This document shows positions 5,793 to 55,766 of a stretch of 64,000 bases of DNA, one piece after another; the first letter of the stretch is position 1, and the number at the start of each line of letters is the position of its first letter. The notes beneath the pieces are model-generated. The model worked only from the letters and a program-made list of their open reading frames with translations, did no database searches and was not told where the DNA came from. Made by a program: the position numbers and the translations under genes. The DNA is from Thermoanaerobaculia bacterium (GTDB lineage Bacteria > Acidobacteriota > Thermoanaerobaculia > Multivoradales > JAHEKO01), in NCBI GenBank assembly GCA_945787575.1, contig CALZKB010000004.1:4776-68775 (forward strand), read 5' to 3'.

Positions 5793-6553
5793 GTCTGCTC
5801 GACCGCGGGGGTGAAGCCGTCCGCCACGTTGGCGCGATCGGGATCCTCAGCGCTCAGGCGGTCACCGCGATGCTGCGCCCGCGCTACGAAGTGGGAGCCT
5901 GGATTCGCGAAATGGAGCAAGTCGGAGTGCGCTCCTTGGGAGTCGCCGCCATCACCACGGTCTTCACGGGGATGGTCCTCGCGCTGCAGACCGCGTACAG
6001 CCTGCCGTCACTCGGGGTCAAGTACTACATCGGAACCGTCGTGTCGAAATCTCTCGTCCGCGAGCTCGGGCCGGTGCTGACGGCTCTCATCGTGGGCGGG
6101 CGGATCGGCTCGGGCATGACGGCCGAGCTCGGCACCATGAAGGTGACCGAACAGATCGACGCGCTCAGATCGATGGCCGCCGATCCGGTCAAGAAGCTCG
6201 TCGTCCCGAAGCTCGTGGCGAGCCTCGTGATGCTCCCCGCCCTCACCATCCTCGGAAACCTCCTCGGAATCCTCGGCGGATTGCTGATCGCGGTCTTCCA
6301 ACTCGACCTCACGGCAGGCTTCTTCGTCAACGACGTGCTGGGCTCCCAGACACTCTCGGACGTCGTCAGTGGCATTGGGAAGTCCTTCTTCTTCGCGTTC
6401 TTCATCGCGATCATCGGCTGCTACAATGGACTGACTGCACGAGGTGGCGCCGACGGAGTCGGCCGGGCGACGACCAACACGGTCGTCATGACCTCGATCC
6501 TGGTCATGGTGTCCGATTTCTTTCTCACCAAGCTCTTCTACACCCTCTTCTAA
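5789..6553 (+). CDS. mlaE: MlaE-family ABC transporter permease (phospholipid/lipid asymmetry system)
   Basis: This is the C-terminal 254 aa of ORF 5051..6553, starting at ATG 5789. It shows the MlaE pattern ..VGVRSLGVAAITTVFTGMVLALQ..VRELGPVLTALIVGGRIGSGMTAELGTMKVTEQIDAL... The upstream part of the ORF is antisense shadow of plsC. Confidence 0.9.
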   Translation: MSLLDRGGEAVRHVGAIGILSAQAVTAMLRPRYEVGAWIREMEQVGVRSLGVAAITTVFTGMVLALQTAYSLPSLGVKYYIGTVVSKSLVRELGPVLTALIVGGRIGSGMTAELGTMKVTEQIDALRSMAADPVKKLVVPKLVASLVMLPALTILGNLLGILGGLLIAVFQLDLTAGFFVNDVLGSQTLSDVVSGIGKSFFFAFFIAIIGCYNGLTARGGADGVGRATTNTVVMTSILVMVSDFFLTKLFYTLF

Positions 6554-8461: not shown

Positions 8462-9430
8462 ATGAGTCACGTTCTCGTTACGGGCGGAGCCGGTTTCATC
8501 GGATCCCACCTCACTCGACGATTGCTCGATCGAGGAGACGCCGTCACGGTTCTCGACGACTTCAACGACTACTACGATCCGCGAAAGAAGCACGCGAACA
8601 TAACGCCCTTCCGGAAGCACGAAGCCTACCGCGTCGTCGAGGGGGACATCCGCGATGCCGAGTTGGTCGATCGACTGTTTCGCGAGCGCTCGTTCGACGG
8701 CGTCGTTCACCTGGCGGCCCGCGCCGGAGTCCGGCCGAGCCTGGCCGAGCCGATTCTCTACGAAGAGGTCAACTGCATCGGTACTCTCCATCTGCTCCAG
8801 GCCGCGCGGGAACACGGCCCCGAGGTCTTTGTTTTCGGCTCCTCCTCGTCCGTGTACGGCATCAACGAGAAGGTCCCTTTCGGCGAGGACGACGAGGTCA
8901 ACCAGCCGATCAGCCCGTACGCGACGACCAAGCGCGCGGGCGAGCTGCTCTGCTACAACTATCACCATCTCTACGGCCTAAAGACCTCGTGCCTGCGCTT
9001 TTTCACCGTCTACGGCCCGGCGCAGCGCCCAGAGATGGCGATTCACAAATTCACCGACCTCCTGGCCCGTGGCGAGTCGATCCCGATGTTCGGGGACGGC
9101 TCCAGCCGGCGCGATTACACCTTCATCTCCGACATTATCGATGGAGTGGAGGCCGCCTTGGACGCCGCCTTCGACTTCGAGATTCTCAATCTCGGAGGCG
9201 CCGAGACGACGTCGTTACAGGACCTGGTTCACTGGATCGCGGCCGAGCTTGATGCGGAGCCGAGCATCGAGTATCTTCCCGACCAGCCCGGCGACGTGCC
9301 GATCACCTACGCCGATGTCACCAAGGCCGGTCGGCTTCTGGGCTACGCCCCCAAGGTACCTATCCGGGATGGTCTTCGACGTTTCGTCGACTGGTACCGC
9401 ACCAACAACCCGAACCGATCGACAGACTGA
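8462..9430 (+). CDS. NAD-dependent sugar-nucleotide epimerase, UDP-glucuronate 4-epimerase-like
   Basis: MSHVLVTGGAGFIGSHL Rossmann start (ATG 8462 inside ORF 8429..9430), catalytic YATTKRAGE (YxxxK), and the RFFTVYGP motif of the GAE/CapI group. Confidence 0.8.
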   Translation: MSHVLVTGGAGFIGSHLTRRLLDRGDAVTVLDDFNDYYDPRKKHANITPFRKHEAYRVVEGDIRDAELVDRLFRERSFDGVVHLAARAGVRPSLAEPILYEEVNCIGTLHLLQAAREHGPEVFVFGSSSSVYGINEKVPFGEDDEVNQPISPYATTKRAGELLCYNYHHLYGLKTSCLRFFTVYGPAQRPEMAIHKFTDLLARGESIPMFGDGSSRRDYTFISDIIDGVEAALDAAFDFEILNLGGAETTSLQDLVHWIAAELDAEPSIEYLPDQPGDVPITYADVTKAGRLLGYAPKVPIRDGLRRFVDWYRTNNPNRSTD

Positions 9431-9434
9431 ACTG

Positions 9435-10760
9435 ATGAACATCTGCGTAGTGGGAAGCGGCTACGTCGGACTCGTGACCGGCTCTTGTCTGGCCGATTTC
9501 GGAATGCACGTCACCGGCGTCGACATCGACGTGGCCAAGGTCGAGGCGCTGCGCCGCGGCGAGATTCCGATCTACGAGCCCGGTCTCGACGAGCTCGTTC
9601 GCAAGAACATGGAGCAGGGCCGTCTCGCGTTCACGACCGAGCTCGGACCCGCTCTCGAGGGCGCACGGGTGGTCTTCATCGCCGTCGGGACGCCGCCGAG
9701 GTCCGACGGCTCGGCCGACCTCAGGTACATTCGGCAGGTCGCGGAGTCGATCGGCGAACACTTGAACGGCTACAAGGTGATCGTGACCAAGAGCACGGTG
9801 CCGATCGGCACCGGCCAGATGATCGAAACGATTGTCAAGGAGAGGAGCGGCAGCGAGAACTTCGCGGTCGTGAGCAATCCCGAGTTTCTCCGCGAAGGGT
9901 CGGCCATCGAGGACTTCATGCAGCCCGACCGGGTGGTGATCGGCAGCCGCGACCCACGCGCCATCGACATCATGCTCGAGATCTACTCCCCGCTGCGCGT
10001 TGCCGACGTCCCTTTCGTGGTCACCGACATCGAGAGTGCCGAACTGATCAAGTACGCCTCGAACGGCTTCCTCGCCGCCAAGATCTCCTTCATCAACGAA
10101 GTCGCTCACCTTTGCGAGAGGCTGGGCGCCGACGTCGAGACGGTGGCGCGCGGCATGGGACTCGACGATCGCATCGGCCCGAAGTTCCTTCATCCCGGTC
10201 CCGGCTACGGTGGCTCGTGCTTTCCCAAGGACTCACGGGCGGTCGCCCAGATCGCCCGCGACCACGGCCTCGAGTTCAAGATCATGGACGCCGTCATCGA
10301 GGCCAACGAGGACACCCGCGATCGGATGCTCGACAAGATCCGCGATGCCTTCGCCGGCGTCGAGGGCAAGACGGTCGCCGTTCTCGGCCTCTCCTTCAAA
10401 CCGGAGACCGACGACATCAGGGAGTCGCCGGCGCTGACGATCGTCGAGGGTCTTCGTGCCGAGGGGGCGACCGTTCGCGCCTTCGACCCCGCCGCCATGA
10501 ATACCTGCCGGGATCTGTGGGCAGACGTCGTCTTTGCCGAAAGCCCCTACGAGGCGGCCGAAGGAGCGCACGGCCTCGTGATCGTCACCGAATGGAACCG
10601 CTTCCGGTTCCTCGACACCGATCGACTGCGGCAGCTCCTCGAGGAGCCTCTGATCATCGATCTGCGCAACATCTACGAGCCGGCCAAGATGGCGAGCGCC
10701 GGCTTTCGCTACGTCTCTCTCGGCCGACCCGAGGGGACTCCGGAAGGGGCCGCGACATGA
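9435..10760 (+). CDS. ugd: UDP-glucose 6-dehydrogenase
   Basis: Real start is ATG 9435 ([23 protein letters not shown]) inside ORF 9069..10760. It has the catalytic GGSCFPKD motif and full-length Ugd layout. Confidence 0.92.
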
Positions 10761-13845: not shown

Positions 13846-16683
13846 GTGATGTCTTCGGGGCGTTTCGATCGATGGCTCTTCTGGGGCGCCGTGTTGCTGG
13901 TCGTCAACAGCGCATATCTCTACACGCACGGCGACCCAGTTGTCCTCTATTTCGCCAACGTCGTCCTCCATCTCGGGCTCGGAATCGCGCTCGCGACCCT
14001 CTTCGTTCCCTGGTGGTGGCAACGGCGGTCACAGCCGTTGGTCCTCGCCGGCGGCGGCGCCTTGGTGGTGTCGATTCTTTGCAGCCTCTGGCTCTGGAGG
14101 ATCGGGAATCTGTCGGGGCATCGTAGGTGGCTCGATGCCCACATACTGTTGGCTCTCGCCGGCCTCGGTCTGCTGATCGCGGCATTCGCCGGTGAGCGAA
14201 GTCGGGGATGGAGGCTCGCAGCGGTCGGCCTCCCCGCGGCCGTGATCGCGGTGTTCGCCGCGCTCGCCTGGCAACAGGGCAACCCGGATCCCCGCCACGA
14301 CCTCGCCAACGTTCCGGCTCCGCTGTCGATGGCGGAGGAGGCGATGGGGGGCGAGGAGGGTCCCTTCTTCCCGTCCTCGGTCAGCACGGGTGACGGTGGC
14401 ACGGTCCCCTCGGAGGTCTATATGGGCTCGGACAGCTGCGCCCGATCCGGCTGTCATCCCGACCTCTACGACCAGTGGAACAGCTCGGCCCACCACTTCT
14501 CGAGCTTCAACAACCAGTGGTACCGCAAGTCGATCGAGTACATGCAGGAGGTGGTCGGCATCCAGCCGTCGAAATGGTGCGGCGGCTGCCACGATCCGGC
14601 GATCCTGCAATCCGGAATGATGGACCGGCCGATCTCCGAGATCGTCCACACAGAGGAAGCCCAGACCGGCCTCTCCTGCACCGCGTGCCACATGATCTCG
14701 ACCGTTCGCAGCACCATGGGGCAGGGGGACTACGAGATCACGGTTCCGCCGCTCCACGGTCTCGCGACCAGCGAGAACCCCCTGCTCACCACCGTTCACG
14801 ACATGCTCGTCCGTCTCGATCCCGAGCCCCACCGCCGGACCTTCATCCGTCCTTTCTTCGAGAACGACGACTCCCCGCAGTTCTGCGCCGCCTGCCACAA
14901 GGTACACCTCGACGTACCGGTCAACCACTATCGCTGGATCCGCGGCTTCAACTCCTACGACAACTGGCAGGCGAGCGGCGTGTCGGGCTTCGGTGCGCGC
15001 TCGTTCTACTACCCACCCGAGCCCAAGAACTGCCTCGACTGCCACATGCCGCTGGTCGCCTCCAACGACGCCGGCAACCGTGGCGGACTGATCCGCTCGC
15101 ATCGCTTTCCGGGCGCCAACACCGCTCTTCCGGTCGCCAATCACGACGAGGAGCAGCTGAAGGTCGTCACCGACTTCCTGCAAGCCCGCCAGGTCACGGT
15201 CGACCTTTTCGCCATGACCGAGGCGGCGCCGATCGCAGAGGTCGCCGGGGGAGGGGTCCAACTTGAGGGACCAGCGCTCGCCACCAGCTTCGCGGTCGGC
15301 GAAGAGCAGGGGATGGCGGTGGGAACGGGAGGCGGCCGCCAGGGCGAGGCCGAGGTGATCTTCGCCCCGCTCGATCGCGTGCCCGCGACGGTGCGGCGCG
15401 GCGAGTCGATGCGGGTCGACGTCGTCGTCCGGACTCGGGGGGTCGGCCACTTCTTTCCCGGCGGCACGGTCGACGCCTTCGAGGTCTGGGTCGAGCTCAA
15501 GGCTACGGATGACGACGGCCGGATCCTCTACTGGAGCGGCATGGCGGACGAAGACTCGCCGATCGAGCCCGGCGCCGCTTTCTACCGTTCGCTGATGATC
15601 GACGCTCACGGCAATCCGATCGACAAGCGCAACGCTTTCGCCAGTCGCGCCGTAATCTACGCCAAGTTGATTCCACCAGGAGCGGGCGACACGGTGCGCT
15701 TCCGGGTCGCTATCCCGGAGTACGCAGGGGACTCGATCACTCTCGAGACGAAACTCAACTACCGGAAATTCGCTTGGTTCAATACTCACTGGGCCTACGC
15801 CGGCGTCCCCGACCCCGATCAGACCGACGCCGGGTTCTCTCCCGACTTCGACGATCGACGTTTCGTCTTCACCGGAGACACGAGCGACGTCTCCGGCCGG
15901 CTCAAGGAGATCCCCCGACTGCCGATCGTGGTGATGGCGGAGGACACGGCGACTCTCGAGGTCGTCGATGCCGATGCCCAGCTACCGGACATGTCCGAGC
16001 CGGAGCACACTTCGGTCGATCGCGAGCGCTGGAACGACTACGGAATCGGCCTATTGCGGCAAGGAGACCTCCGCGGGGCGAAGCGCGCTTTCGAGGTGGT
16101 CACCCGGCTCGAGCCGGAGTACGTCGACGGCTGGGTCAACCTCGGTCGCGTGGCGCTGGCCGAGGGTGACCTCGACGCGGCCGAGACCGTTCTCGAGCGG
16201 GCACTCGAGCTCGATCCAAGGCTCGCCCGTGCGCACTACTTCCGAGGACTCGTCGACAAGGAGCTGGGAGACTATGAGCTCGCTCTCGGCCACTTCCGCG
16301 CTGCTGCCGAGCCGTATCCGAAGGATCGCGTCGTGCGCAACGCGATCGGTCGCATCCACTTTCTGCGCAGGGAATTCGAGGAAGCGATTCGCGAGTTCAA
16401 GCTGGTGCTGGACATCGATCCGGAGGACTTGACCGCCCACTACAGCTTGATGCTCGCCTACCGCGGCGCCGGCGACAGCGAGCTCGCGGACCGCCATCGT
16501 CGGTACTACGAACGCTTCAAGGCCGACGAGTCGAGCCAAATCCTCACCGGCGAGTACCTCAAGAACAACCCACATGACAACAACCGGCGGCAGCGCATCT
16601 TCGAGCACCAGAGCGTGCCGCCCGACCAGATCGAGCGGTTTCTCTCCCGAGGCCGCGGCGATCGCCTACCGGCCGGGGGCTGA
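13846..16683 (+). CDS. membrane-anchored multihaem c-type cytochrome with C-terminal TPR repeats
   Basis: 945-aa ORF (GTG 13846 or ATG 13849). It has about five N-terminal TM helices and four CxxCH motifs (CGGCH, CTACH, CAACH, CLDCH) plus one CX4CH (CARSGCH). The C-terminus has TPR-like repeats (..AKRAFEVVTRLEPEYVDGWVNLGRVALAEGDLDAAE..). Confidence 0.85.
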   Translation: MMSSGRFDRWLFWGAVLLVVNSAYLYTHGDPVVLYFANVVLHLGLGIALATLFVPWWWQRRSQPLVLAGGGALVVSILCSLWLWRIGNLSGHRRWLDAHILLALAGLGLLIAAFAGERSRGWRLAAVGLPAAVIAVFAALAWQQGNPDPRHDLANVPAPLSMAEEAMGGEEGPFFPSSVSTGDGGTVPSEVYMGSDSCARSGCHPDLYDQWNSSAHHFSSFNNQWYRKSIEYMQEVVGIQPSKWCGGCHDPAILQSGMMDRPISEIVHTEEAQTGLSCTACHMISTVRSTMGQGDYEITVPPLHGLATSENPLLTTVHDMLVRLDPEPHRRTFIRPFFENDDSPQFCAACHKVHLDVPVNHYRWIRGFNSYDNWQASGVSGFGARSFYYPPEPKNCLDCHMPLVASNDAGNRGGLIRSHRFPGANTALPVANHDEEQLKVVTDFLQARQVTVDLFAMTEAAPIAEVAGGGVQLEGPALATSFAVGEEQGMAVGTGGGRQGEAEVIFAPLDRVPATVRRGESMRVDVVVRTRGVGHFFPGGTVDAFEVWVELKATDDDGRILYWSGMADEDSPIEPGAAFYRSLMIDAHGNPIDKRNAFASRAVIYAKLIPPGAGDTVRFRVAIPEYAGDSITLETKLNYRKFAWFNTHWAYAGVPDPDQTDAGFSPDFDDRRFVFTGDTSDVSGRLKEIPRLPIVVMAEDTATLEVVDADAQLPDMSEPEHTSVDRERWNDYGIGLLRQGDLRGAKRAFEVVTRLEPEYVDGWVNLGRVALAEGDLDAAETVLERALELDPRLARAHYFRGLVDKELGDYELALGHFRAAAEPYPKDRVVRNAIGRIHFLRREFEEAIREFKLVLDIDPEDLTAHYSLMLAYRGAGDSELADRHRRYYERFKADESSQILTGEYLKNNPHDNNRRQRIFEHQSVPPDQIERFLSRGRGDRLPAGG

Positions 16684-42349: not shown

Positions 42350-42611
42350 GACCCCCGATACTACTGCCTCCGGTGGCTGGTAGTCCTTCGTTTCCGAGCG
42401 GCACGAAAGAACCCACCGAGGCCGAGGGCGACATTTCTCCCCCAAGGGAGTTCTAGGGCGGTGCCTTTGGGTCCGCTCGGTCAACGCCCGGGGAGCGCCC
42501 CGCCGGGACACCACGAAATCAGGCCGCTCGGGCCCTCCGAGGGCGGCACGGCCGTTGCGTATCACGGTTGCAGCCGGAGTGTTCGGGCGCGACCACGACA
42601 GGAGAGAAGCG

Positions 42612-44651
42612 ATGACGAAATCCAAACATCAGCGACCTGCGGGAAGCCTCCCTTGGTGGAGGGCCACGGGAGTCTGGCCGTACTGGACAATGGCCGCCAT
42701 GCTCCTCAGCACGGTTGCCGTCGCCGCGCACGGCGCTCCAGAACTCACCGACCTGTCGCTCGACGAGCTCCTCGGCGTCGAGGTGGTCTTCTCGGCCTCG
42801 AAGTACGAGCAGCATCCGCTCGACGCCCCGGCCTCGGTGAGCATCGTCACCCGAGAAGAGATCGAAGCTCACGGCTACAGGACTCTCGCCGAGATCTTGG
42901 GGGCAACCCGAGGGATCTTCACGACCTACGACCGCACCTACCACTACGCGGGCATTCGCGGCTTCGGCAGGCCCGGCGACTACAACAGCCGCCTGCTCCT
43001 GTTGGTCGACGGGGCTCGGCTAAACGACAACATCTACGAGTCGGCAGGGATCGGGGGTGACTTCCCTGTCGACATCGATCTGATCGAGCGAGTGGAGATC
43101 GTTCGCGGCCCGAGCTCGTCGATCTACGGGACGAGCGCACTGTTCGGAGTCGTCAACGTCGTGACGAGGACCGGTGAGAGCGTCGACGGTCTGGAAGTCT
43201 CGATCGGCACCGGGAGCTTCGACACCCAGAGCGCCGACCTACGATACGGAATGGTCTCCGACAACGGCGTGGAGCTCCTGGCGTCAGCCTCGATTCTCGA
43301 CAGCGGCGGCCAGCGACTCTACTTCAGCGAGTTCGACAGCCCGGAATCTGATGACGGCATTGCCGACATCGATGACGAGAAGATCACGTCGTTCTTCGTT
43401 TCCAGTTCGTACAGAGACCTCGAGTTCGAGGCCTTCTCGAGCCGGCGGGAAAAGGGCATCCCCACGGCGTCTTGGGAGACCGAGTTCGCCGACCCCCGGA
43501 CCCGGAGTTTCGACGATCAGGACCGGTTGACCCTCACGTTCGACCGCTCTGGAGACCGAGCCTGGGGGCTGCTCGCACGGGCCAGCTACAACCGCTACGC
43601 CTATGTCGGCGACTACGCCTTCGACTACGGTGAGGAAGATGAGCCGTACGTCGTCGTCAATCGAGACGACGCGCTTGGCGAGTGGTGGGGTGGTGAGCTA
43701 CAGCTGAAGCGAAGGCTACCAGCCGGCCACACGGTGCTCCTGGGAACCGAGCTGCGCGACAACTTTCGTCAGAACCAGTCGAATTTCGACGAGGAGATCT
43801 ACCTGGACGAAAGGAACTCGACCGTCACTTGGGGAGCCTATGCTCAAGGAGAGTTCCTTCTCGGCCAGAAGCTGCGAGTCAACGGCGGGCTGCGCTACGA
43901 CAACTATCAGGACCTAGACAGCCGGTTGAGCCCCCGGTTGGCGCTCATCTACCGATCGTCGGAGTCGTCCAGCTGGAAGCTCTTGGCTGGAACCGCATTC
44001 CGAGCTCCGAGCGCCTACGAGCGCTACTACCACGACGGTGAATATACGAGCAAGGCACCGACCAGCCTCGAAAGCGAGACCATCGAGACCCTGGAACTGG
44101 TCTGGGAGCGGGAGCTGGCGAGCGGTTGGAAGCTCGCGGCGTCGCTCTACGACTACGATCTCAGAGACCTGATCAACTACACGACCGACCCGGCTGACGA
44201 GCTCCTCGTGTTCTCCAACCTGAACCGAGCGGAGGCCAACGGCGTCGAGGTCGAGTTGGCCGGCACGCTCCGAGGAGGGATAGGGGGGCGATTCAGCTAC
44301 AGCCGCCAGCGTGTCAAGGACGGAGTCAGCGGTGAGACGCTCTCCAACACTCCCGAGCACCTGGCCAAGGTTCTGCTCACTCGACCGATCTCGAGCGAGC
44401 GGATCAGGGTCGGTGCTCAGCTCGACTACATGTCGACGAGGCGAGCCCTTGACGGCACCATCGTTGACGATCACCTCGTCACCAACTTCACCCTCGCGAG
44501 CGACCTGTGGGACGAACGCGGGCGGGTCACCATGGGCCTCTTCAACCTGTTCGATGAGAGCTTCGGCGACCCTGGGTCGGAAGAGCATGAGCAGCGAATG
44601 ATCCCTCAGAACGGCCGGAGCTGGTGGCTCGAGCTCTCTTGGAGGTTCTGA
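42612..44651 (+). CDS. TonB-dependent outer-membrane receptor
   Basis: AGGAGA RBS, then ATG 42612. It has a signal peptide, a plug domain (SVSIVTREEIEAHGYRTLAEILGATRGIF), a long beta-barrel and a terminal ..LELSWRF. Confidence 0.88.
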   Translation: MTKSKHQRPAGSLPWWRATGVWPYWTMAAMLLSTVAVAAHGAPELTDLSLDELLGVEVVFSASKYEQHPLDAPASVSIVTREEIEAHGYRTLAEILGATRGIFTTYDRTYHYAGIRGFGRPGDYNSRLLLLVDGARLNDNIYESAGIGGDFPVDIDLIERVEIVRGPSSSIYGTSALFGVVNVVTRTGESVDGLEVSIGTGSFDTQSADLRYGMVSDNGVELLASASILDSGGQRLYFSEFDSPESDDGIADIDDEKITSFFVSSSYRDLEFEAFSSRREKGIPTASWETEFADPRTRSFDDQDRLTLTFDRSGDRAWGLLARASYNRYAYVGDYAFDYGEEDEPYVVVNRDDALGEWWGGELQLKRRLPAGHTVLLGTELRDNFRQNQSNFDEEIYLDERNSTVTWGAYAQGEFLLGQKLRVNGGLRYDNYQDLDSRLSPRLALIYRSSESSSWKLLAGTAFRAPSAYERYYHDGEYTSKAPTSLESETIETLELVWERELASGWKLAASLYDYDLRDLINYTTDPADELLVFSNLNRAEANGVEVELAGTLRGGIGGRFSYSRQRVKDGVSGETLSNTPEHLAKVLLTRPISSERIRVGAQLDYMSTRRALDGTIVDDHLVTNFTLASDLWDERGRVTMGLFNLFDESFGDPGSEEHEQRMIPQNGRSWWLELSWRF

Positions 44652-44691
44652 GTTCGCGCCCGATCCTGGAGGACGACTGCGAAGAGACGCG

Positions 44692-45306
44692 ATGCATGGG
44701 ATCATGCAAACTGAGGGCCCCAGCCACAGAAGGCCGATCGGCACCAAGCTGCTCGCCACGTTGCTCCTCTGTGCCGCGAGCCACTCCCCGGCGATCGCAT
44801 TACCGGATCCCGAGGATGTCCGTGAGGCTCCCGAGCACGCTGTGAAGGCGGCGTTTCTCTACAACTTCGCCCAGCTCGTCGAGTGGCCTTCGGACAGCGC
44901 ACAGCAGCGAGGCGAGAGCTTGCGCGTCGGCGTCTGGTCCGACAAAGAGCGCAGCCGCCAGGTGGCTCGCGTCATCAGCGGGAAGCAAGTCGACGGGCGG
45001 CCGATCGAGGTCCGGGTGATGGACGACGTAGAAGCTCTGACGGACTGCCAGATTCTCTTCATACCGGCTTCCGCGCCGAAACAGCTGGCCACGATCTTGG
45101 CTGCCGTTCGAGACTTGCCAATCCTCACGGTCGGAGAGGCGGAATCGTTCTCCGCGATGGGAGGCATCATCCGTCTCAAGATCGTCGAAAGCCGAGTCCG
45201 CTTCGAGATCAACCTCGAGTCCGCCGGCAGATCCGGCTTGACGGTCAGCTCGAAGCTGCTCCGAGTGGCCGAGGTCGTCGGCCTTCCCAACGAGGGGAGC
45301 CGATGA
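44692..45306 (+). CDS. YfiR-family (DUF4154) periplasmic protein
   Basis: 204-aa ORF with a signal peptide. Motifs: VKAAFLYNFAQLVEWP, ILFIPAS, LTVGE..F...GGIIRL......VRFEINL. Confidence 0.8.
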   Translation: MHGIMQTEGPSHRRPIGTKLLATLLLCAASHSPAIALPDPEDVREAPEHAVKAAFLYNFAQLVEWPSDSAQQRGESLRVGVWSDKERSRQVARVISGKQVDGRPIEVRVMDDVEALTDCQILFIPASAPKQLATILAAVRDLPILTVGEAESFSAMGGIIRLKIVESRVRFEINLESAGRSGLTVSSKLLRVAEVVGLPNEGSR

Positions 45307-47351
45307 GAGGCCTCGCACCCCTGCGCGACATCTCCATTCGTTGGAAGCTCGCCGGATTGATCACTCTGGTGAGCGGAATCGCCCTCATCGCGGTGGCTGC
45401 CGGGCTGCTCCTGCAGGACGCTCGCTCATTCCGAACGGCGTTCACACGGCAGATCTCCACCCTCGCCGACATCGTGGCCACGAACAGCGAAGTCGCTCTC
45501 CTCTTCGACGACGAGAAAGCCGCGGCAGAGGTGCTCGAGTCCCTCGCCGCGGAGCCGCGAGTGCTCGTGGCCATCCTCTACTCACGTGACCAAGTGGCCT
45601 CCGCCACCTATTTCAAGGAGGAATCGGCGACGCGCCTCTCCGACAGCTGTCGCAGCCCAGGCTCCGGGGAAGATGCCGAGCGCAGTATTCTCTCGATCAG
45701 TCGGGACATCGTTTGGCTCGAGGAACCGATCGGGCGCCTGTGCTTGGTCGCCGGCACCGATGAGCTCAACGCACACCTGCGTCGCGGCCTGAAGGTGACC
45801 GGCTTCGTGCTACTGGCGGCGATCGCTGCAACCTTCCTACTGTCGATGGTTTTCCAGAGAGTCCTGTCACGGCCCATTCTGGAATTGGCGGGCGCGGCAC
45901 AAGCGATCGCCCAGAAGGACTACGACGTGCAGGTCCCGGCACGGGCCAACGACGAGATGGGCTCTCTCGCGCGGACCTTCAATCGCATGGTGCGAGAGAT
46001 CAAGGCACGCGACGTGGCCCTCGTGGACACCCAGATCGAGCTCGAGCGCCAGGTCAAGGAACTGAATCGCGAGATCGCCGAACGTGAACGCGCCGAAGAG
46101 GCGCTCCAAGAGAGCGAGGAAGCTCTCCGCCAAGCCCAGAAGATGGAAGCGATCGGTCTTCTCGCCGGCGGCATCGCTCACGATTTCAACAACCTGATGA
46201 CGGCGGTCCTGGGCTACAGCGATCTGATCCTCGAAGGTCCGAACCAGAGCGAAGAGCTCAGACTTCAAGCCCGACAGATCAATGCCGCGGGAGTCCGAGC
46301 GGCGGACTTGACCAAGCAGCTGCTGGCTTTCTCGCGGAAACAGATTCTCGACCCCGAGATCATTGACCTCAACGGGTGCGTGACCAAACTGCGAGACATT
46401 ATGGAGAGACTCATCGGCGAGGATACCGTCTTCAAGTTCGACCTCTCGCCCGATCTCGGCATGCTACGAGCCGACCTGTCGCAGATCGAACAGGTCTTGC
46501 TCAATCTCGTCGTCAATGCCCGCGATGCGATGTCGACAGGTGGCACGATCGAGATCTCGACCTCGATGGGAGAGCGCACCTCGGGCCTGTCACCGGCCAG
46601 GTCCGGGGAGACGAACGGCCGCTGCGTGAAGCTCTCGGTCCGCGACACGGGCTGCGGCATGGACGCCGAGACTCAGGAGAAAATCTTCGAGCCCTTCTTC
46701 TCGACCAAAGCCGCAGGCAAGGGCACGGGACTCGGGCTATCGACCGTGTTCGGCATCGTCAAGCAGAGCGGCGGTGAGATTGTGGTGGATAGCATGGTCG
46801 GTGAGGGCACCACTTTCACCGTGTGCCTTCCAGCGGTAGCTTTGGACACCGCTCACCAAGACAGTCCTCCGGTTGGACTCGCAGATGGCCCTGACCCGTG
46901 CGGCGAGCCAAGGGCCGAAGCTCGATCATCGGCAACGGTCTTGGTGGTCGAAGATCAACCGACGGTCAAGAATCTCGCCGTTACCACGCTCGAGTTGGCG
47001 GGCTACACGGTGCTCGCGGCCGCGGACGGCGAGACCGCCCTGGCGCTGAGCCGTAGCTACCCGCAGCCCATCGACCTGCTGCTTACCGATGTCGTCATGC
47101 CAGGAATGAACGGCTGCGAGGTGGCCCAGCTCGTTACGGCAGATCGCCCCGAGATGTGCACTCTCTTCATGACAGGCTACGCCACTCGGGACGTGGTGAG
47201 CCAGGGTGTTCTGGTCGACGGCGTAGATCTTCTTCACAAGCCCTTCTCACCAAGCGAGCTGCGGCAGCGCGTGATCCGTGCGCTGCGCGAGCGAGCAGTA
47301 GGCGCCGAGACCCATCGCCCCCACGCCGGGCGTCCTTCTCGAAGTCCCTAG
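45303..47351 (+). CDS. hybrid sensor histidine kinase / response regulator with CHASE8-like N-terminal sensor and HAMP
   Basis: ATG 45303 overlaps the yfiR-like stop (ATGA). Domains in order: TM plus sensor region, HAMP (..[17 protein letters not shown]), HisKA ([17 protein letters not shown]), HATPase ([16 protein letters not shown]), C-terminal REC ([21 protein letters not shown]). Confidence 0.88.
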
Positions 47352-47428: not shown

Positions 47429-49270
47429 TCAACGCTGGGGGAAGAGCTCCGAGGTGTCGCAGTCCTGAACGATCATGCCGCCGCCTTCGCCCTCCACGCA
47501 CGCCTCGTTGTTGAAAGCCTCCCAAACCGGCTGCACCGTGCAGATGTAGACCTCGACGCCGCCGACCGGGAGGATCGCGAAGAACCGATCGCAGTCGGGA
47601 AGCAGCGGGTCGCTGACCGTCACGTTGATCAGGTCGACGTCACCGATGTTGGAGACCGCGATCTCGAAGTCGACGGGGCCGAAGGGATCCTCCTCACGGA
47701 AATCGGGTCCCTCCTCCTGCTTGCGGATGTCGATCGCGGGATCGCCGGCCTCGATGATCACCTCCGAGGGATCGCAGTCCATCACCATGACCGGGTCGCA
47801 GACGCAATCGCTGTCCGAATCACTGTCGGACCCGCTGTCGCTGTCCGAACCGCTGTCGCTGTCCGAGCCGCTGTCACTGTCCGAGCCGCTGTCGCTGCCG
47901 GAATCGCTGTCGCTGCCGGAATCGCTGTCGCTGCCGGAATCGCTGTCGCCCGACTCGGTCGTGCCGCCGCTTCGGAAGCTGTCGCTCCCCGAATCGCTGT
48001 CCGAACCGCTGTCGCTGTCCGAGCCGCTGTCGCTATCTGAACCGCTGTCGCTGTCTGAACCGCTGTCGCTGTCTGAACCGCTGTCCGAATCGCCGTCGCA
48101 GGAGCATTCCGAATCGGAGTCGCTGTCGCTGCCGGAGTCCGAGCCGCTGTCGCTGTCGGAACCACTATCGCTGTCGGAACCGCTGTCGCTGTCCCCCCCC
48201 CTCGCGCCAGAAGAGTAGCTTCCGGTCGCGCCACCGCTTTGGAAGCTGCCGCTGTCCTCGTCGTCGCAGTCCTCGCTGTTGTTGTACTCGTCCAGCTCGT
48301 CCTTGATCGCCAGGGCTTCCTGCCTGGTCGCACCGCTTGGGTCGCTTCCGGGCGGATACAGGGCTAGAAAGGCATCCGCTTCGTCCACGACCGGCTGAAT
48401 CGACGGGTCTGACCCGGACGCCAGGTTGAGCTTGGTGGCGGTCAAGTGACGGGCGAGCTTCAGCGTGGCGTCCGAGCCACCGTAGTTCAGGAAGGCGAGC
48501 AGCTCGCTCATGTCGTAGAGGACGCCTCCGATCTCCAACTCGTGGACCGGCCAGTCGGACTCGTGATTCTTCCAGTAGCCGGGCGTTCGTGGACAGAAAC
48601 CTCCAGCCGGACCTCCTGAGAATCCGACGACACAGGCCTCGTTGATGAAGCTCTCCGTCACCCCCGGCGCGACGCAGACGTAAGCAAACCCGTCGCCGGC
48701 GGCAAGATCGCCGATCAGCTGGTCGCAGTCCGGAACGAGAACATCAGTGACCACGACGTCGGAGAGATCCGTGCTGCCGATGTTGGTGACGACGATCTCG
48801 AACGGAACGTCGCCTGCGGGCAGCGTCCGCGAGTCGTCACCTTCTTCCTGCTTGCGGATGTCGATGGCCGGCTCCGGCTCGTCACAATCGGAGTCGGAGT
48901 CGCTGTCCGAGTCGGAGTCGCTGTCCGAGTCGCTGCCGCTGTCAGAGTCGCTGTCGCCGTCCGATCCGCTGTCGCTGTCGCTGCTGGAATCACTGTCGGT
49001 CTCGGTGGTACCGCCGTTTCGGAAGCTGTCGCTGCCCGAGTCGCTGTCGCTGCCCGAGTCGCTGTCCGAACCGTCGCAGCCCGAATCGCTGTCGCTGTCG
49101 GAGCCGCTGTCACTGTCCGAGCCGCTGTCACTGTCGGTCTCGGTCGCACCCTTGATCTGGGTCCCGAAGGAACCCTGCCCCTGGACTGTGTCTGGCACCA
49201 TCCAGACGACCACAAGTAGAGCCAAACTCAGCGTCACCAGTAGCTGGATCGGACGACGCATACGGGCCAT
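47429..49270 (-). CDS. secreted, highly acidic Ser-Asp(-Gly) repeat protein with two DUF11/'conserved repeat domain'-like modules and a central GYWKNH domain
   Basis: 613-aa ORF with GGAGG RBS 5 nt before ATG 49270 and signal peptide [33 protein letters not shown](G) blocks at aa 43-130 and 359-488. Duplicated [33 protein letters not shown] modules. Confidence 0.85.
47807..48196 (-). repeat. coding tandem repeat (SDSGSD units, 12/18-nt periodicity), block 2
   Basis: The plus strand reads ..ctgtccgaaccgctgtcg ctgtccgagccgctgtca ctgtccgagccgctgtcg ctgccggaatcgctgtcg x3 .., i.e. near-identical 18-mers in tandem. Confidence 0.9.
48881..49144 (-). repeat. coding tandem repeat (SD / SDSG units), block 1
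   Basis: The plus strand reads ..tcggagtcggagtcgctgtccgagtcggagtcgctgtccgagtcgctgccgctgtc.., encoding aa 43-130 of the SD-repeat protein. Confidence 0.9.
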
Positions 49271-49372
49271 ATCAACCTCCTCGCCAGAGACGTTCGAAAC
49301 GAACGACTCTAAGTTGTTGTGAGCGTTCCCCTCTATTCAGAACGAGCATTATACGAAATCCATCAAACGCTG

Positions 49373-49404
49373 TGAAGTATTTCATAGTGAGCAGACATCA
49401 CTAT
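49373..49404. promoter_or_regulatory. adjacent palindromes in the AT-rich region upstream of the SD-repeat gene (candidate operator)
   Basis: TGAAgTAtTTCA (49373-49384, 10/12 palindromic) abuts ATAGTGA-gcagaca-TCACTAT (49384-49404, perfect 7-bp arms). Confidence 0.35.
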
Positions 49405-49458: not shown

Positions 49459-51081
49459 TCATTTCCCAAATCGCTCGACAAATGCCGCCGTCGCCGCCTC
49501 GCCACCCGCGATGAAGACGGAGTCGGCTTGCGCGAAGCGGAAGTCGGGACCAAACTCGACGAGGATCTCGTCCCCGCGCTCGACCGCGACGACCGAGCTT
49601 CCCGTCTTCGCGCGGATCCCGAGATCGGCCGGATGATGACCGACGAGGCGGCCCGGGAAGACCTTGAGGACTCTCAGCTCCTCGTCGAGGGCGATCGCCT
49701 CCTCACCCAAGAGGCGACGAGCCAGCAACTGCCCGGCGACTTGGCTGATCGACAGCGCGAAGTCGGCACCGGCAGCGTGAATCCGCTCTACGTTCTTGGG
49801 ACTGTTGACCCGGGCGATGATCGGAACTCGGGGCGCGAGATGGCGCACGATCACCGTGGCGAACAGTGTCGCCGGGTCGGAGTCGAGCGCCAACACCACG
49901 GCCTGCGCGGTTCGCACCTCCGCCCGTTCGAGCACGCTCGGATCGAGCACGTCGCCGACGACATCGGCATCCGGCGCCGACTTGTCGACAATCCGGACAG
50001 GCTCTCCGGCGTCGCGCAACAGCTGTGAGACCTTCCGGCCGACTTCGCCGTGACCCGCCACCACCACCGGCGTCGCCGCCTCCCTCTCCCCCCCCGAGCA
50101 CTCGCTGACAAAGGCGTCCAGGTTCGCGGCTTCCCCCGCCAGGACCAGGATTCCGTTGGGCTCGATCGTGGCATCTCCCGAGGTTGTCGGCGCCAGCCGT
50201 CCACCGATCCACTGACCGAGCACGGTGACGCCGGTGCGCCGACCGATGTCCGCCGATTTCGGTGTCATTCCGGCAAGCAAGCTCGCCGGTCCGACGCGCA
50301 CCTCGCGGATGTGGAGGTGGCGCCCGAGCTGCTGAGTCCCGGAGACGACCGCACCCAGGCGACGGCGCGCTTGCGCGGCGAGAGCTGCCCCCAAGACGTG
50401 GCGGGGGGAGTAGGCGGCGGTCGCTCCGGCGAGCATCATCGGCTGGCGGTGGACCGGTTCCTCGACGAGGGCGATGACCTCACCGCGACAGGCAAGCTGG
50501 CGCGCACTCAAGATCACGGCTGCGTTCTCGTGGTCCTGCCCGTTGGCGATCAGGGTCCGAGCCTCCTGGATCGATGCCCGTTCGAGGACGCCGTCCTCGA
50601 GACGGCCTGAGATCACCCGTCGCCCGGCTTTGAGCAGGCTTCTCGCAAGCCCTTCGTCGGGCTCGATCACGAGGCTCTCGATTCCGGCGCGCTCGATCTC
50701 TCCGAGGAGCGTCGCCACCGCCGGTCCCGACCGGTAGATCACGAGGTGGTCCCTCATCGGTCTGGCCTCGGTCGGCACCTTCGACTCGAAGCGCTCCTCC
50801 AGGAAGGGAATCAGGTAGATCGGGAAGATCAGAAAGATGATGCAGACGCCGGCGAACTGCCAGAGGATGACGAAGATCGCCATCGCGGGGTGAGTCCAGG
50901 TCGAGTCTGCGCCGTAGCCAGTCGTCGACAGGGTCTCCGCCGCCCATCCGAGACTCCTCCAGAAGCCACGTGGCGTGCCCTCGAGGTACTGCATCCCGAG
51001 CATGTAAAGGGCAGCGACCAGCACGATGAGCACGGGAACCGCGACGATGAGGATCAGCAAGCGCTGCTGGCTCTTGACCAT
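49459..51081 (-). CDS. 2-TM K+ channel with tandem RCK (TrkA-N/TrkA-C) domains
   Basis: Likely start ATG 51081 (MVKSQQRLLILIV); the ORF extends to 51174. Pore signature ETLSTTGYGA. Second RCK has VVVAGHGEVGRKV (GxGxxG). Two TrkA-C-like segments. Confidence 0.8.
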   Translation of the reverse strand: MVKSQQRLLILIVAVPVLIVLVAALYMLGMQYLEGTPRGFWRSLGWAAETLSTTGYGADSTWTHPAMAIFVILWQFAGVCIIFLIFPIYLIPFLEERFESKVPTEARPMRDHLVIYRSGPAVATLLGEIERAGIESLVIEPDEGLARSLLKAGRRVISGRLEDGVLERASIQEARTLIANGQDHENAAVILSARQLACRGEVIALVEEPVHRQPMMLAGATAAYSPRHVLGAALAAQARRRLGAVVSGTQQLGRHLHIREVRVGPASLLAGMTPKSADIGRRTGVTVLGQWIGGRLAPTTSGDATIEPNGILVLAGEAANLDAFVSECSGGEREAATPVVVAGHGEVGRKVSQLLRDAGEPVRIVDKSAPDADVVGDVLDPSVLERAEVRTAQAVVLALDSDPATLFATVIVRHLAPRVPIIARVNSPKNVERIHAAGADFALSISQVAGQLLARRLLGEEAIALDEELRVLKVFPGRLVGHHPADLGIRAKTGSSVVAVERGDEILVEFGPDFRFAQADSVFIAGGEAATAAFVERFGK

Positions 51082-51233
51082 CGCCGGGATTGTACCGGTC
51101 CTGTCTCGTGGGGATGCCTCCCGCGACCTGTCGGGCGCCATGTCCGCTCGAGCGAGTCCCCCGTGGACGCTCACCGCCTCGACCTCCCTGGCGCCTCGCG
51201 GCGACCGCCACGAGCAGCTGCTACCCTTTGGCC

Positions 51234-54030: not shown

Positions 54031-54916
54031 AACGGCGACAGCGGCCGCCTTCGGGTTCGTCCTCGCCGTCATGTCGACTCCCCTGGCGGCTCTCGAGGTG
54101 CCCTATCTGGCGGCGCGAGTCAACGACGTTGCCGGAATGCTCTCGGCCGAAGCCGAGGCGCGACTGGAGACCCGCCTGGCGGCGATCGAGACGAACGAAG
54201 GTGCCCAGCTGGCGATCCTGACGATCCCCAGCCTCGAGGGAGAGAATCTCGAGGAGTACTCGATCCGAGTCGTCGACACCTGGGAGCTCGGCCGCGAGGC
54301 CGAGGACGACGGCATCCTGCTGCTCATCTCCAGGGACGACCGCAAGATGCGGATCGAGGTCGGCTACGGACTCGAGGGGGCGCTGACCGATGCCTACTCC
54401 CGCCGGATTCTCGACGAGATCCTCCGCCCAAGGTTCCGCGCCGGGGACTTCGACGGCGGCGTGGAGCGGGCGGTCGAGGTGATCGCCGGCGTGATCGAGG
54501 GCGACGATCTACTGCCTCCCCCCGAGAATGTCTCGAGAGGCTTGCCCCGACGCGTCGAGTTGGGCGGCTTCCTGTTCTTCCTCGTCGTCATCTTCCCCTT
54601 GGCTCTCGGAGCCGTGACGACGCGCGGCTGCGGAAGCTGGATGCTGTACGCGATTCTGGCTCCAGTCTGGTTCGGCGGCCCGGCCGCCCTGCTCAGCCCT
54701 CGAGCCGGCTTGATCTGTCTCGTCGCCTGGCTCGTCGGCTTCCCGATCTTCCACCTTCTGTTCTCTCGCAAACGGGGCCGAGGAGGCTCCGGCTGGTCGT
54801 CTTCGAGCGGTTGGGGTGGCGGCGGCTTCTCGGGCGGCGGCGGCTTCTCGGGCGGTGGCGGGTTCTCGAGCGGCGGCGGCGGCTTCGGCGGCGGCGGCGC
54901 CTCCGGGAGCTGGTGA
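54023..54916 (+). CDS. YgcG-like TPM-domain protein with Gly-rich tail
   Basis: 297-aa ORF with a signal peptide. TPM core ..AQLAILTIPSLEGENLEEYS..GILLLISRDDRKMRIEVGYGLEG.., TM helices, and a C-terminal GGGFSGGGGFSGGGGF tail. Confidence 0.8.
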   Translation: MRETATAAAFGFVLAVMSTPLAALEVPYLAARVNDVAGMLSAEAEARLETRLAAIETNEGAQLAILTIPSLEGENLEEYSIRVVDTWELGREAEDDGILLLISRDDRKMRIEVGYGLEGALTDAYSRRILDEILRPRFRAGDFDGGVERAVEVIAGVIEGDDLLPPPENVSRGLPRRVELGGFLFFLVVIFPLALGAVTTRGCGSWMLYAILAPVWFGGPAALLSPRAGLICLVAWLVGFPIFHLLFSRKRGRGGSGWSSSSGWGGGGFSGGGGFSGGGGFSSGGGGFGGGGASGSW

Positions 54917-54959
54917 CGACCGGGCTCGCGACGACAGAGCACCGTACAGGAGACTTGCG

Positions 54960-55766
54960 ATGACCGAACATCCCTACCTGGTTTCTCCCGACCGCACCCT
55001 CGACCTCGCCGGGCGCGATCCCCGAGACCGACGGCTTTTCGCCGGCGGAAAGCGCGAGGGGCGGGACCAGATCAGGGCGCTCAACGGGCGCCTCGAGACG
55101 CTGCAGGAGACCCTCTACGCGGAGGGTAGACACAAGATCCTGATCGTCCTGCAGGCGATGGACACGGGCGGCAAGGACGGCACCATCCGCCACGTCTTCG
55201 AGGGGACCAACCCGCAGGGCGTCAAGGTCGCGAGCTTCAAGAAGCCGACTCCGAAGGAGCTCGCCCACGACTATCTCTGGCGTGTCCACCGGCACACTCC
55301 GGGGCGCGGCGAGATCACGATCTTCAATCGCAGCCACTACGAGGACGTTCTCGTCGTTCGCGTTCACGGCCTCGTCTCCCCCGAGGTGTGGGGCAAGCGC
55401 TATCGGCACATCGTCGAGTTCGAGAGACTCCTTGCCGAGGAGGGCACGGTGATTCTCAAGTTCTTCCTCCACATCTCGAAGGAAGAGCAGAAGGAGCGGC
55501 TCCAAGCGAGGCTCGACACCCCCCACAAGCAGTGGAAGTTTTCGAGAGGAGACCTCGCCGAGCGAGCGCACTGGGACGCCTATGTCGAAGCCTACGAGGT
55601 GGCGTTGTCCAAGACCAGCAAGCCTTGGGCGCCCTGGTATGCGATCCCCGCCGACCGCAAGTGGTACCGCAATCTCGTCATCTCCCGCATCCTCGTCGAG
55701 CGACTGGAGGCGCTCGAGATGAGCTACCCGGACCCGGAAGACCTCGACGGAGTCGTCGTCGACTGA
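54960..55766 (+). CDS. ppk2: polyphosphate kinase 2 family protein
   Basis: CAGGAGA RBS, then ATG 54960. LIVLQAMDTGGKDGTI (Walker A-like), ..FNRSHYEDVLVVRVH.., ..KFFLHISKEEQKERL.. PPK2 motifs. Confidence 0.88.
   Translation: MTEHPYLVSPDRTLDLAGRDPRDRRLFAGGKREGRDQIRALNGRLETLQETLYAEGRHKILIVLQAMDTGGKDGTIRHVFEGTNPQGVKVASFKKPTPKELAHDYLWRVHRHTPGRGEITIFNRSHYEDVLVVRVHGLVSPEVWGKRYRHIVEFERLLAEEGTVILKFFLHISKEEQKERLQARLDTPHKQWKFSRGDLAERAHWDAYVEAYEVALSKTSKPWAPWYAIPADRKWYRNLVISRILVERLEALEMSYPDPEDLDGVVVD

Follow-up and report, generated by a model that had tools for sequence, protein, structure and literature searches.

The gene at positions 47,429 to 49,270 of a 64-kb stretch of contig CALZKB010000004.1 from a Thermoanaerobaculia bacterium (the whole stretch is hereafter called the window) encodes a 613-amino acid (aa) protein with long serine–aspartate (SD) repeats. 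The product is probably an exported, anchorless protein of the CLIPPER class, in which the SD tracts serve as expandable, disordered, and polyanionic spacers in the interdomain linkers. The identities of the folded domains, the points at which the tracts are inserted, the variability of the tracts among relatives, and the lack of an anchor or an adjacent modifying enzyme were all observed directly. The original prediction for this gene, made from the sequence alone, had described two successive copies of an SD block, a Cys cluster, and a module, and had proposed that it could be a cation- or mineral-binding matrix protein or an adhesion protein of an undescribed type. The comparison with relatives led to a different description of the protein.

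SD tracts in relatives

As the full-length query was swamped by SD words (11 matches; only the 8,000 candidates sharing most words were scored), the protein search was repeated with a de-repeated query. Two relatives, P0001 (354 aa; from GCA_945786845.1) and P0003 (360 aa; from a metagenome-assembled genome (MAG) titled Thermoanaerobaculia), were 59% and 49% identical, respectively, over 97–98% of this query. Both have the plan signal peptide–CLIPPER_2–central domain–Cys-rich cap–CLIPPER_2 and contain no SD tract at all, and their genomic neighbourhoods differ from that of the window. In a global alignment, the window protein corresponds to the P0001 plan with two insertions, namely, aa ~33–131, directly after the signal peptide, and aa 336–488, immediately following the final Cys of the central domain. 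Single-sequence AlphaFold modelling of P0001 gave a predicted local distance difference test (pLDDT) score of 36. The Cys-rich cap is kept in P0001 (SCEVTVTDCDNSEV) and in the orthologue described below. Because proteins without SD tracts also have the Cys cluster, it is a component of the CLIPPER cap rather than of the repeat, and the predicted plan of SD block, Cys cluster, and module in duplicate is contradicted by P0001 and P0003.

A full-length positional orthologue of 614 aa (L086:1540-3384, on the JGI contig Ga0224497_10000316), with a TrkA-like gene upstream, was recovered by scanning metagenomes with a three-sequence alignment; a metagenome scan with window-specific peptides gave no match. 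A partial copy of this orthologue, P0179, is a 186-aa fragment from an "Acidobacteriota bacterium" and adjoins LOG, beta-CASP, ABC system, DUF4340, and ribonucleotide reductase genes in the window order. The loci L083 and L086 share the TrkA-like, LOG, beta-CASP, ABC, DUF4340, and ribonucleotide reductase neighbours with the window. In the case of the L086 orthologue, the flanking proteins are 66% and 79% identical to those of the window, and CLIPPER modules 1 and 2 are 68% and 52% identical, respectively. It carries four SD tracts of 23, 23, 29, and 51 residues with the unit SDSDSDSG (8 aa/24 nt), and the copies are almost perfect in the tract for which the DNA was examined. The orthologue lacks a GYWKNH-type central domain and instead carries a pair of DUF7467 domains (PF24269, 80 bits) with 91% identity between them; the first lies between the signal peptide and module 1, and the second separates the two modules. 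The place of window tract 1 is held there by an SD–DUF7467–SD segment and that of tract 2 by a tract of ~49 aa with the 24-nt unit, while the Cys-rich cap before module 2 and the type of C-terminus (…QR) are shared.

Across the wider family of the central domain, its last Cys is commonly followed at once by acidic low-complexity sequence. This sequence is SD-type in P0007 and P0008 as well as in the giant protein encoded at L020, and poly-D or D/G in P0041, P0169, L011, L019, and L074; other members have Thr/Pro linkers at this point. Among relatives, the SD tract length ranges from absent to ~150 residues. Variation in repeat length among homologues, which had been suggested as a check, was observed, with no tract in P0001 and P0003 and four tracts of another length and unit in L086. 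Since the tracts are missing from P0001 and P0003 and differ in the orthologue, the evidence points to lineage-specific, fast-changing expansions of interdomain linkers and not to a conserved functional domain. Moreover, tract number, length, and unit as well as the head domain itself are different in the orthologue, which argues for variable linkers and against the tracts as the functional core of a cation or mineral matrix protein.

Composition and repeat structure of the tracts

The product contains 120 S, 111 D, 73 G, and 16 C residues and is a compositional outlier among the 38 window genes (20% S vs ≤9%; K+R 4%). Runs consisting solely of S, D, G, C, or E occupy aa 46–82, 92–131, 358–431, and 439–489, which amounts to ~200 residues or about one third of the protein; the figure of ~218 repeat residues given earlier (aa 43–130 and 359–488) agrees with this once the islands are counted. 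The net charge was calculated to be approximately −125 for the mature protein and approximately −49 for the repeat-free core.

Tandem Repeats Finder reported two arrays with an 18-nt period, at 47823–48194 (21.3 copies, score 237) and 48891–49135 (13.9 copies, score 126). The commonest unit is GAC AGC GAC AGC GGY TCN (DSDSGS). As both arrays show ~70% matches and mixed Ser codons, they are degenerate. All three predicted islands of the form SF(R/Q)xGG(T/A)T were located: SFRNGGTTE at aa 82–90, SFQSGGATG at aa 342–350, and SFRSGGTTE at aa 431–439. The two SFR.GGTTE islands are identical at 24 of 27 nt, and at the DNA level block 1 aligns with a portion of block 2 over ~235 nt at ~80% identity, island included. 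This indicates that one block is a copy of the other, in keeping with the relationship proposed for them. No further SD tract, and no GYWK motif in a real gene, was found within the 64-kb window.

Cys motifs of the C-x-C or C-x-x-C type recur within or at the ends of the acidic linkers, as CSC and CVC in the window protein (with aa 65, 389–391, and 489–491 as the motif positions) and as CGEC, CTC, and CVC in the orthologue (aa 59–68, 433–435, and 488–490 of the L086 protein). Not all 16 Cys of the window protein are assignable to conserved domain pairs, and the partner of C213 that is seen in P0001 (…DDCWC…) is missing here. The surplus Cys might form interchain disulfides or metal sites. No RTX, EF-hand, or DxDxDG Ca-site motif was found in the window protein.

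CLIPPER modules and C-terminus

Pfam recognised two stretches each for DUF7507/CLIPPER_2 (PF24346, 39.9 bits vs a cut-off of 27) and DUF11/CLIPPER (PF01345, 30.5 vs 24.6), and NCBIfam TIGR01451 was matched at 26.6 bits (cut-off 24), likewise at two stretches. With all three models above their cut-offs, the resemblance of the ~85-aa modules to DUF11 noted at the outset is a family assignment. The two modules are identical at 48 of 89 aa. DUF7507 and DUF11 were recently renamed CLIPPER_2 and CLIPPER, for which a crystal structure is available (PDB 9IFR), and CLIPPER has the same type of Lys/Asp/Asn isopeptide triad with a catalytic Asp (bioRxiv 10.1101/2025.04.25.650565). Across 12 aligned modules of related proteins, no variation was seen in the Lys of IDIRK, the Asp of V.V.D, the Asn of F.N.A, or one Cys pair. 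On the basis of these residues, the modules probably self-lock by a Lys–Asn isopeptide bond. Sequence searches of the PDB with module 1 and with a profile of the 12 modules gave no match to 9IFR or to any Ig domain, so the triad assignment draws on Pfam membership and the conserved columns.

Pfam and NCBIfam scans (E ≤ 1) and motif inspection detected no LPXTG, PEP-CTERM, T9SS, RTX, or autotransporter signal in the window protein; apart from RTX, these signals had already been reported missing, and the scans concur. There is no hydrophobic segment after aa 30, and the C-terminus bears no sorting signal. IPTL-CTERM was found in none of the window protein, P0001, P0003, and the orthologue. Elsewhere, a larger protein of similar PAIDIRK…CLIPPER_2 repeats (L088:1243-4566, plus strand) ends in IPTL-CTERM (33 bits vs a cut-off of 20.5), indicating that this type of CLIPPER_2 repeat is used on anchored proteins in other genomes. 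P0005 has a weak IPTL-CTERM match (16 bits) together with an EDSAP-1 PEP-CTERM-family N-terminal region.

Central GYWKNH domain

A distinct domain had been noted between the modules; it was delimited to aa 226–335 and turned out to have a very large family of its own and a confidently predicted fold. This region has no Pfam or NCBIfam match, and the same holds for all 65 family members scanned. A word-indexed search with the central domain alone gave a single match. Accordingly, a family profile built from eight copies was used in an exhaustive search of 1.84 billion representative proteins, and 7,986 clusters were matched at E ≤ 1e-3 and 3,303 at E ≤ 1e-10. The near-invariant columns of the family comprise the first Cys and the last, the motif C-x-x-[TS]-x-G-[YF]-W-K-x-H, W-P, a central L-N…G, and Y-N-N, all of which the window protein has within aa 226–335. 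As the two conserved Cys sit at the domain ends, a C226–C335 disulfide would staple these ends together.

AlphaFold2 with a 65-sequence alignment gave a model (m6c63a38876f1, window aa 216–341) with pLDDT 91.9 and a predicted template modelling (pTM) score of 0.86. The family profile found no sequence relative in the PDB, and Foldseek gave no PDB match at E < 1. A match to a designed armadillo protein in the single-sequence PDB search (E 3.5e-9, 44 residues) disappeared once the family profile was used (E > 0.4), and Foldseek gave no support for it; it was rejected as homology and attributed to a local helical hairpin. Taken together, the profile and structure analysis of the three non-repeat domains, which had been proposed along with the prediction, assigned the modules to CLIPPER_2/DUF11 and the central domain to an unnamed, confidently modelled helical fold. 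The sole significant fold matches were uncharacterised proteins of Pithovirus LCDPAC02, LCPAC001, and LCPAC202 (TM-score 0.65–0.66, 23–26% identity) and a collagen-repeat protein of Indivirus ILV1, with TM-scores of 0.60–0.66 over all of these matches. Either the GYWKNH domain occurs in giant viruses, or those metagenomic bins hold prokaryotic contigs.

Within the family, the domain is found singly, in tandem with up to six copies, right after a signal peptide, and very often in the final position of giant proteins of 5,000–7,900 aa. It has no annotated relative and is found in other proteins alongside stalk and sorting domains, the partners being Calx-beta, CLIPPER, SdrD_B, CarboxypepD_reg, PKD, VWA, DUF7467, and T9SS tails. 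Because the domain is terminal in stalk-rich exported proteins, it may act as a ligand-binding head. The literature search returned no paper that mentions the GYWKNH motif. In a scan of one genome per GTDB species with 10 close sequences as the query, the matches were mostly in MAGs titled Thermoanaerobaculia or Acidobacteriota. Further matches were in Rhodothermales, Planctomycetota, Myxococcota, Krumholzibacteriota, Spirochaetota, Fibrobacteraceae, Chloroflexi, Nitrospirae, Bathyarchaeia, Thermoplasmata, and Altiarchaeota. The Bacteroidota are also among the phyla with this domain. GYWKNH and DUF7467 domains occur together in the single proteins P0205 (the central domain, then DUF7467 and a T9SS tail), P0032, and L052, which places both alternating heads in one shared domain repertoire.

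The gene neighbours of 80 central-domain loci revealed no conserved partner except further giant genes in one clade. In 12 loci (L007, L019, L027, L028, L031, L032, L035-L038, L068, and L071), titled Thermoanaerobaculia, Acidobacteriota, Holophagales, or Multivoradales, a giant GYWKNH-ending gene is immediately followed by an open reading frame (ORF) of ~2,000 aa, which bears the transglutaminase-like core motif …QASLLIALYRASGAAARYVGG… (e.g., L038, frame +2, from ~nt 6350). Smaller relatives of ~230–380 aa have the plan signal peptide–~100-aa N-domain–GYWKNH–acidic stretch (P0108, P0112, P0116, P0121, P0124, P0127, P0135, P0143, P0144, P0156, P0158, P0159, P0176, and P0177). Among the tails printed, their C-terminal end conforms to [ST]-W-[GSD]-x-[IVLM]-K-x-x-[YF]-[KRQ], which could represent a sorting or processing tail not recognised so far. 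Two of these proteins, P0176 and P0177, carry the label Krumholzibacteria, and P0176 has no NCBIfam match.

Gene, expression signals, and neighbourhood

The features of the gene are summarised in Table 1. The coding sequence has a GC content at third codon positions (GC3) of 0.82, and in alignments with relatives its reading frame matches the homologues on either side of both repeat arrays. The identical 613-aa protein is also recorded on contig CALZGG010000531.1 of the MAG GCA_945786865.1. The promoter-like sequence is a consensus match, found at one site vs 0.2 expected in shuffles. Since this near-consensus match and a GGAGG precede the ATG, the target gene appears to possess its own expression signals. 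Rfam reported no RNA family within or around the gene.

Table 1. Positions of the features of the SD-repeat gene and its product in the window
Feature	Protein position	Window position	Strand	Details
Complete coding sequence		47429..49270	−	ATG start; 613 aa and stop codon 47429-47431; ORF list
Sigma-70-like promoter match		49348..49376	−	TTCACA-17-TATAAT; 11/12; inside the 188-bp AT-richer upstream spacer
GGAGG ribosome-binding site		49276..49280	−	5 nt before ATG; read from sequence
Predicted signal peptide	aa 1-31	49178..49270	−	MARMRRP, 18-residue hydrophobic core, and VQG/Q; orthologue ends ..VQG/N
SD(G) tract 1	aa 43-131	48878..49144	−	18-nt array with C65 and SFRNGGTTE (49001-49027)
CLIPPER_2/DUF11 domain 1	aa 132-217	48620..48877	−	Putative triad K140/D176/N210; Cys pair C182/C199
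Central GYWKNH domain	aa 226-335 (C226…C335)	48266..48595	−	Short helix, beta-hairpin, four further helices; unnamed family
Acidic linker and SD(G) tract 2	aa 336-488	47807..48265	−	DDED, SFQSGGATG, SD array with C389-S-C391, SFRSGGTTE (47954-47980)
Cys-rich cap and CLIPPER_2 domain 2	aa 489-613	47432..47806	−	C489-V-C491…DC499D; putative triad K517/D554/N588; C560/C577, C591/C604

The hydropathy maximum of the whole protein lies at aa 7–26, which is the sole strongly hydrophobic segment. Judged by eye and from this profile, the N-terminus is a putative Sec signal peptide ending in VQG/Q, and the export signal suggested earlier is borne out to this extent. A Tat signal was rejected in view of the very hydrophobic core after the RR and the 16 Cys of the protein, and a lipoprotein was rejected as there is no lipobox.

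The neighbourhood was assessed from the 31 window genes scanned with Pfam, which extend ~20 kb towards lower and ~14 kb towards higher coordinates. None of them encodes a glycosyltransferase, protein kinase, sortase-like enzyme, or secretion system, and the remark that no glycosyltransferase or kinase is adjacent holds for this whole set. The scanned neighbours are housekeeping or regulatory, and no metal-handling or biomineralisation genes are nearby. The convergent neighbours encode a TonB-dependent receptor, a DUF4154/YfiR-like protein, and a CHASE8 hybrid histidine kinase; as a TonB-dependent receptor is encoded, the host, which is GC-rich, is a diderm. These three genes form a cassette at 42555-47351 (plus strand; TonB-dependent receptor, DUF4154/YfiR-HmsC-like protein, and CHASE8-HAMP hybrid histidine kinase) between LOG and the target gene. 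The cassette is absent from the syntenic loci L083 and L086, which indicates an insertion or deletion difference between related genomes. Further on that side are LOG, a beta-CASP nuclease, GAPDH, a GldA/F/G-like ABC system, DUF4340, and a class II ribonucleotide reductase.

Upstream of the target gene lies a TrkA/RCK K+-channel-like gene, followed on the same side by a DinB-type polymerase, LemA and TPM proteins, PPK2, and an RlmN-like gene. The K+-channel-like product, encoded at 49459-51174 (minus strand) and in L086:77-1381 (plus strand), is a membrane protein with two TrkA_N/TrkA_C (RCK) pairs. The spacer between its gene and that of the polyanionic protein is 188 bp in the window and 158 bp in L086. 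Because P0001 and P0003 have no TrkA-like neighbour, the adjacency may be plain synteny. Unrelated to the target, a 945-aa protein encoded at 13846-16683 (plus strand) has a cytochrome c554/c'-like multihaem region (weak match, aa 202–282) and a long C-terminal TPR array.

Discussion

The ancestral protein would have had the plan signal peptide–CLIPPER_2–head domain–CLIPPER_2. The CLIPPER modules, as CnaA-like Ig domains, would be rigid, protease-resistant parts of the scaffold, and the head, here a disulfide-stapled helical domain of an extracytoplasmic family, would be the ligand-binding part and exchangeable on this small scaffold. The SD blocks would be in-frame expansions of an 18-nt repeat in two linkers, one after the signal peptide and the other after the head. 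Similar to the SD region of staphylococcal Sdr/Clf proteins, they may separate the folded modules from one another and maintain the chain in a soluble, hydrated state, and repeat recombination would allow them to grow, shrink, and be copied fast. The disorder of the tracts and their spacer function are suggested by composition, position, and variability, and the protein may finally reside in the periplasm, at the surface, or in the medium.

Several points weigh against this explanation. The spacer role is argued from these three properties only, and variability would be equally possible for a function that depends on dosage, for instance, cation buffering. Nothing lies ahead of the N-terminal tract for it to space from unless the N-terminus is held, and the conserved islands and C-x-C motifs inside the tracts are unexplained by a pure spacer. 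The head domain is functionally uncharacterised, so its binding role is putative. In addition, a Sec signal alone cannot carry a protein across the outer membrane of a diderm, and the repeat copy numbers come from metagenome assemblies.

The most familiar SD-repeat proteins are the staphylococcal MSCRAMM proteins of the Sdr/Clf type. The window protein likewise has a long acidic Ser-Asp tract of variable length in an exported protein, placed between folded Ig-like modules. In Sdr proteins, the SD region is described as an extended stalk whose length varies from 56 to 558 residues (PMC10367597). However, the NCBIfam MSCRAMM models (ClfA, ClfB, SdrC, and SdrD) gave 108–113 bits vs cut-offs of 999–2500, with only aa 327–492 aligned. 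The N2N3 ligand-binding A region, SdrD-type B repeats, and the LPXTG/membrane anchor are missing from the window protein. The Sdg glycosyltransferase, which is encoded with its substrate in the Sdr/Clf case, has no counterpart among the scanned genes. Furthermore, the window host is a diderm, unlike the Sdr/Clf hosts, and the repeat unit is the hexapeptide DSDSGS, whereas that of Sdr/Clf is a pure SD dipeptide. Given that the tests for an A region, for an LPXTG anchor, and for Sdg enzymes nearby were all negative, the likeness to Sdr/Clf stalks is a convergence and not membership.

Compared with the CLIPPER fibrillar adhesins (e.g., Acinetobacter silvestris B9T28_05395, PDB 9IFR), the window protein shares the family membership by Pfam score, the Lys/Asp/Asn positions, and export. 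It differs in that it has only two modules, which are not in tandem, a length of 613 aa vs thousands, and no Pfam-recognised adhesion or sorting domain; of the fibrillar adhesin plan, the predicted signal peptide is present, but an anchor or sorting domain was not found. With only two modules, which are non-adjacent, the SD tracts may substitute as the stalk. Thus, the protein is of a known kind, a CLIPPER-class exported protein, and what is new is its convergent SD stalk-like linkers.

An explanation that we consider unlikely is that the polyanion is the functional part, i.e., that a cation-buffering or mineral-interacting (Ca, Mg, Fe, or rare-earth) envelope or matrix protein is formed by the SD tracts, with the folded domains only positioning them. 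The charge reported above is high even for the repeat-free core, and the recurrence of acidic tails (poly-D, D/G, and SD) after the central domain hints at selection for negative charge at this point. The C-x-C motifs within the linkers of the window protein and the orthologue, and the K+-channel-like TrkA/RCK gene directly upstream at both loci, would also suit such a function. However, the closest relatives with the full architecture, P0001 and P0003, do entirely without tracts, and the number, unit, and length of the tracts differ even in the positional orthologue. DxDxDG, RTX, and EF-hand-like motifs are lacking, and so are metal-handling or biomineralisation genes among the neighbours. 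The resemblance to dentin phosphophoryn, with its DSS repeats, is limited to Ser/Asp-dominated polyanionic low complexity in an exported protein, with no homology. To function, phosphophoryn must be heavily phosphorylated on Ser by a secretory kinase. No such kinase is encoded among the scanned window genes, and tracts of the window type are dispensable in close relatives.

A doubtful but specific proposal concerns how the protein came to be. SD-coding DNA could provide portable homology by which head cassettes are duplicated, swapped, and deleted on a fixed CLIPPER scaffold, and the islands within the window tracts might then be the "ghost" edges of deleted DUF7467 domains. One such process might also account for the two 91%-identical SD–DUF7467–SD cassettes of the orthologue, the paralogous blocks of the window protein, and the replacement of DUF7467 by GYWKNH, although we hold this broader claim to be improbable as well. 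DUF7467 has conserved edges, namely, an N-terminal C-x-x-C-x-G-K-V-T and a C-terminal G-D-F…S-[RK]-x-G-G-P-x-C. The sole non-SD residues in each window block follow the same order, with …C-D-G… (C65; C389-S-C391-D-G) and then S-F-R-x-G-G-T-T-E. The C389 motif is preceded by D-S-E, as in the D-S-E-C…C-G-E-C-D-G of the orthologue, and block 1 sits exactly where the orthologue carries its first DUF7467. However, no DUF7467 was detected in the window protein by Pfam at E ≤ 1 or by a home-made DUF7467 hidden Markov model with all filters off, so the evidence for ghost cassettes consists of short post hoc motifs.

The SD tracts could instead be the substrate of a distant SdgA/SdgB-like glycosyltransferase or a kinase, such that a decorated stalk resists proteases or is recognised by other factors. 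Staphylococcal SD repeats are modified with GlcNAc by SdgA and SdgB (Hazenbos 2013, as cited in PMC10367597), and the window tract offers more than 100 Ser in a uniform context. Nevertheless, we regard this as quite improbable, since the scanned window genes include no glycosyltransferase or protein kinase, UDP-glucose dehydrogenase (9069-10760) and PPK2 (54816-55766) are not protein-modifying enzymes, and no such modifying enzyme was seen at either of the two related loci.

That short-read arrays were collapsed, expanded, or misjoined, so that the true gene is shorter, longer, or broken, is very improbable: the source is a MAG and the orthologue contig L083 breaks exactly at this gene, which implies that such arrays disturb assembly, but the arrays are degenerate enough for reads to be placed, the frame stays open through both and rejoins the conserved domains in register, the same product occurs on two contigs, and the independent metagenome contig L086 carries an intact 614-aa SD-bearing orthologue.

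In conclusion, the protein represents a case in which a staphylococcal-style SD stalk arose independently in an environmental diderm lineage, on another scaffold and without the Gram-positive anchoring and glycosylation machinery. It is thus useful for asking what SD tracts do physically, apart from sortase-anchored adhesins. The practical impact is moderate, as the host is uncultured and no long-standing open question is addressed. The analysis also exposes an extracytoplasmic GYWKNH family of ~8,000 clusters in bacteria and archaea, which is a good target for curation, structure determination, and ligand work. Moreover, one orthologous locus in which the head is swapped between SD linkers provides a concrete case for linker-shaped modular evolution of surface proteins. 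If SD-coding DNA does mobilise head cassettes, this would be a natural linker-mediated domain-shuffling system that diversifies secreted binding proteins in Thermoanaerobaculia-like bacteria.

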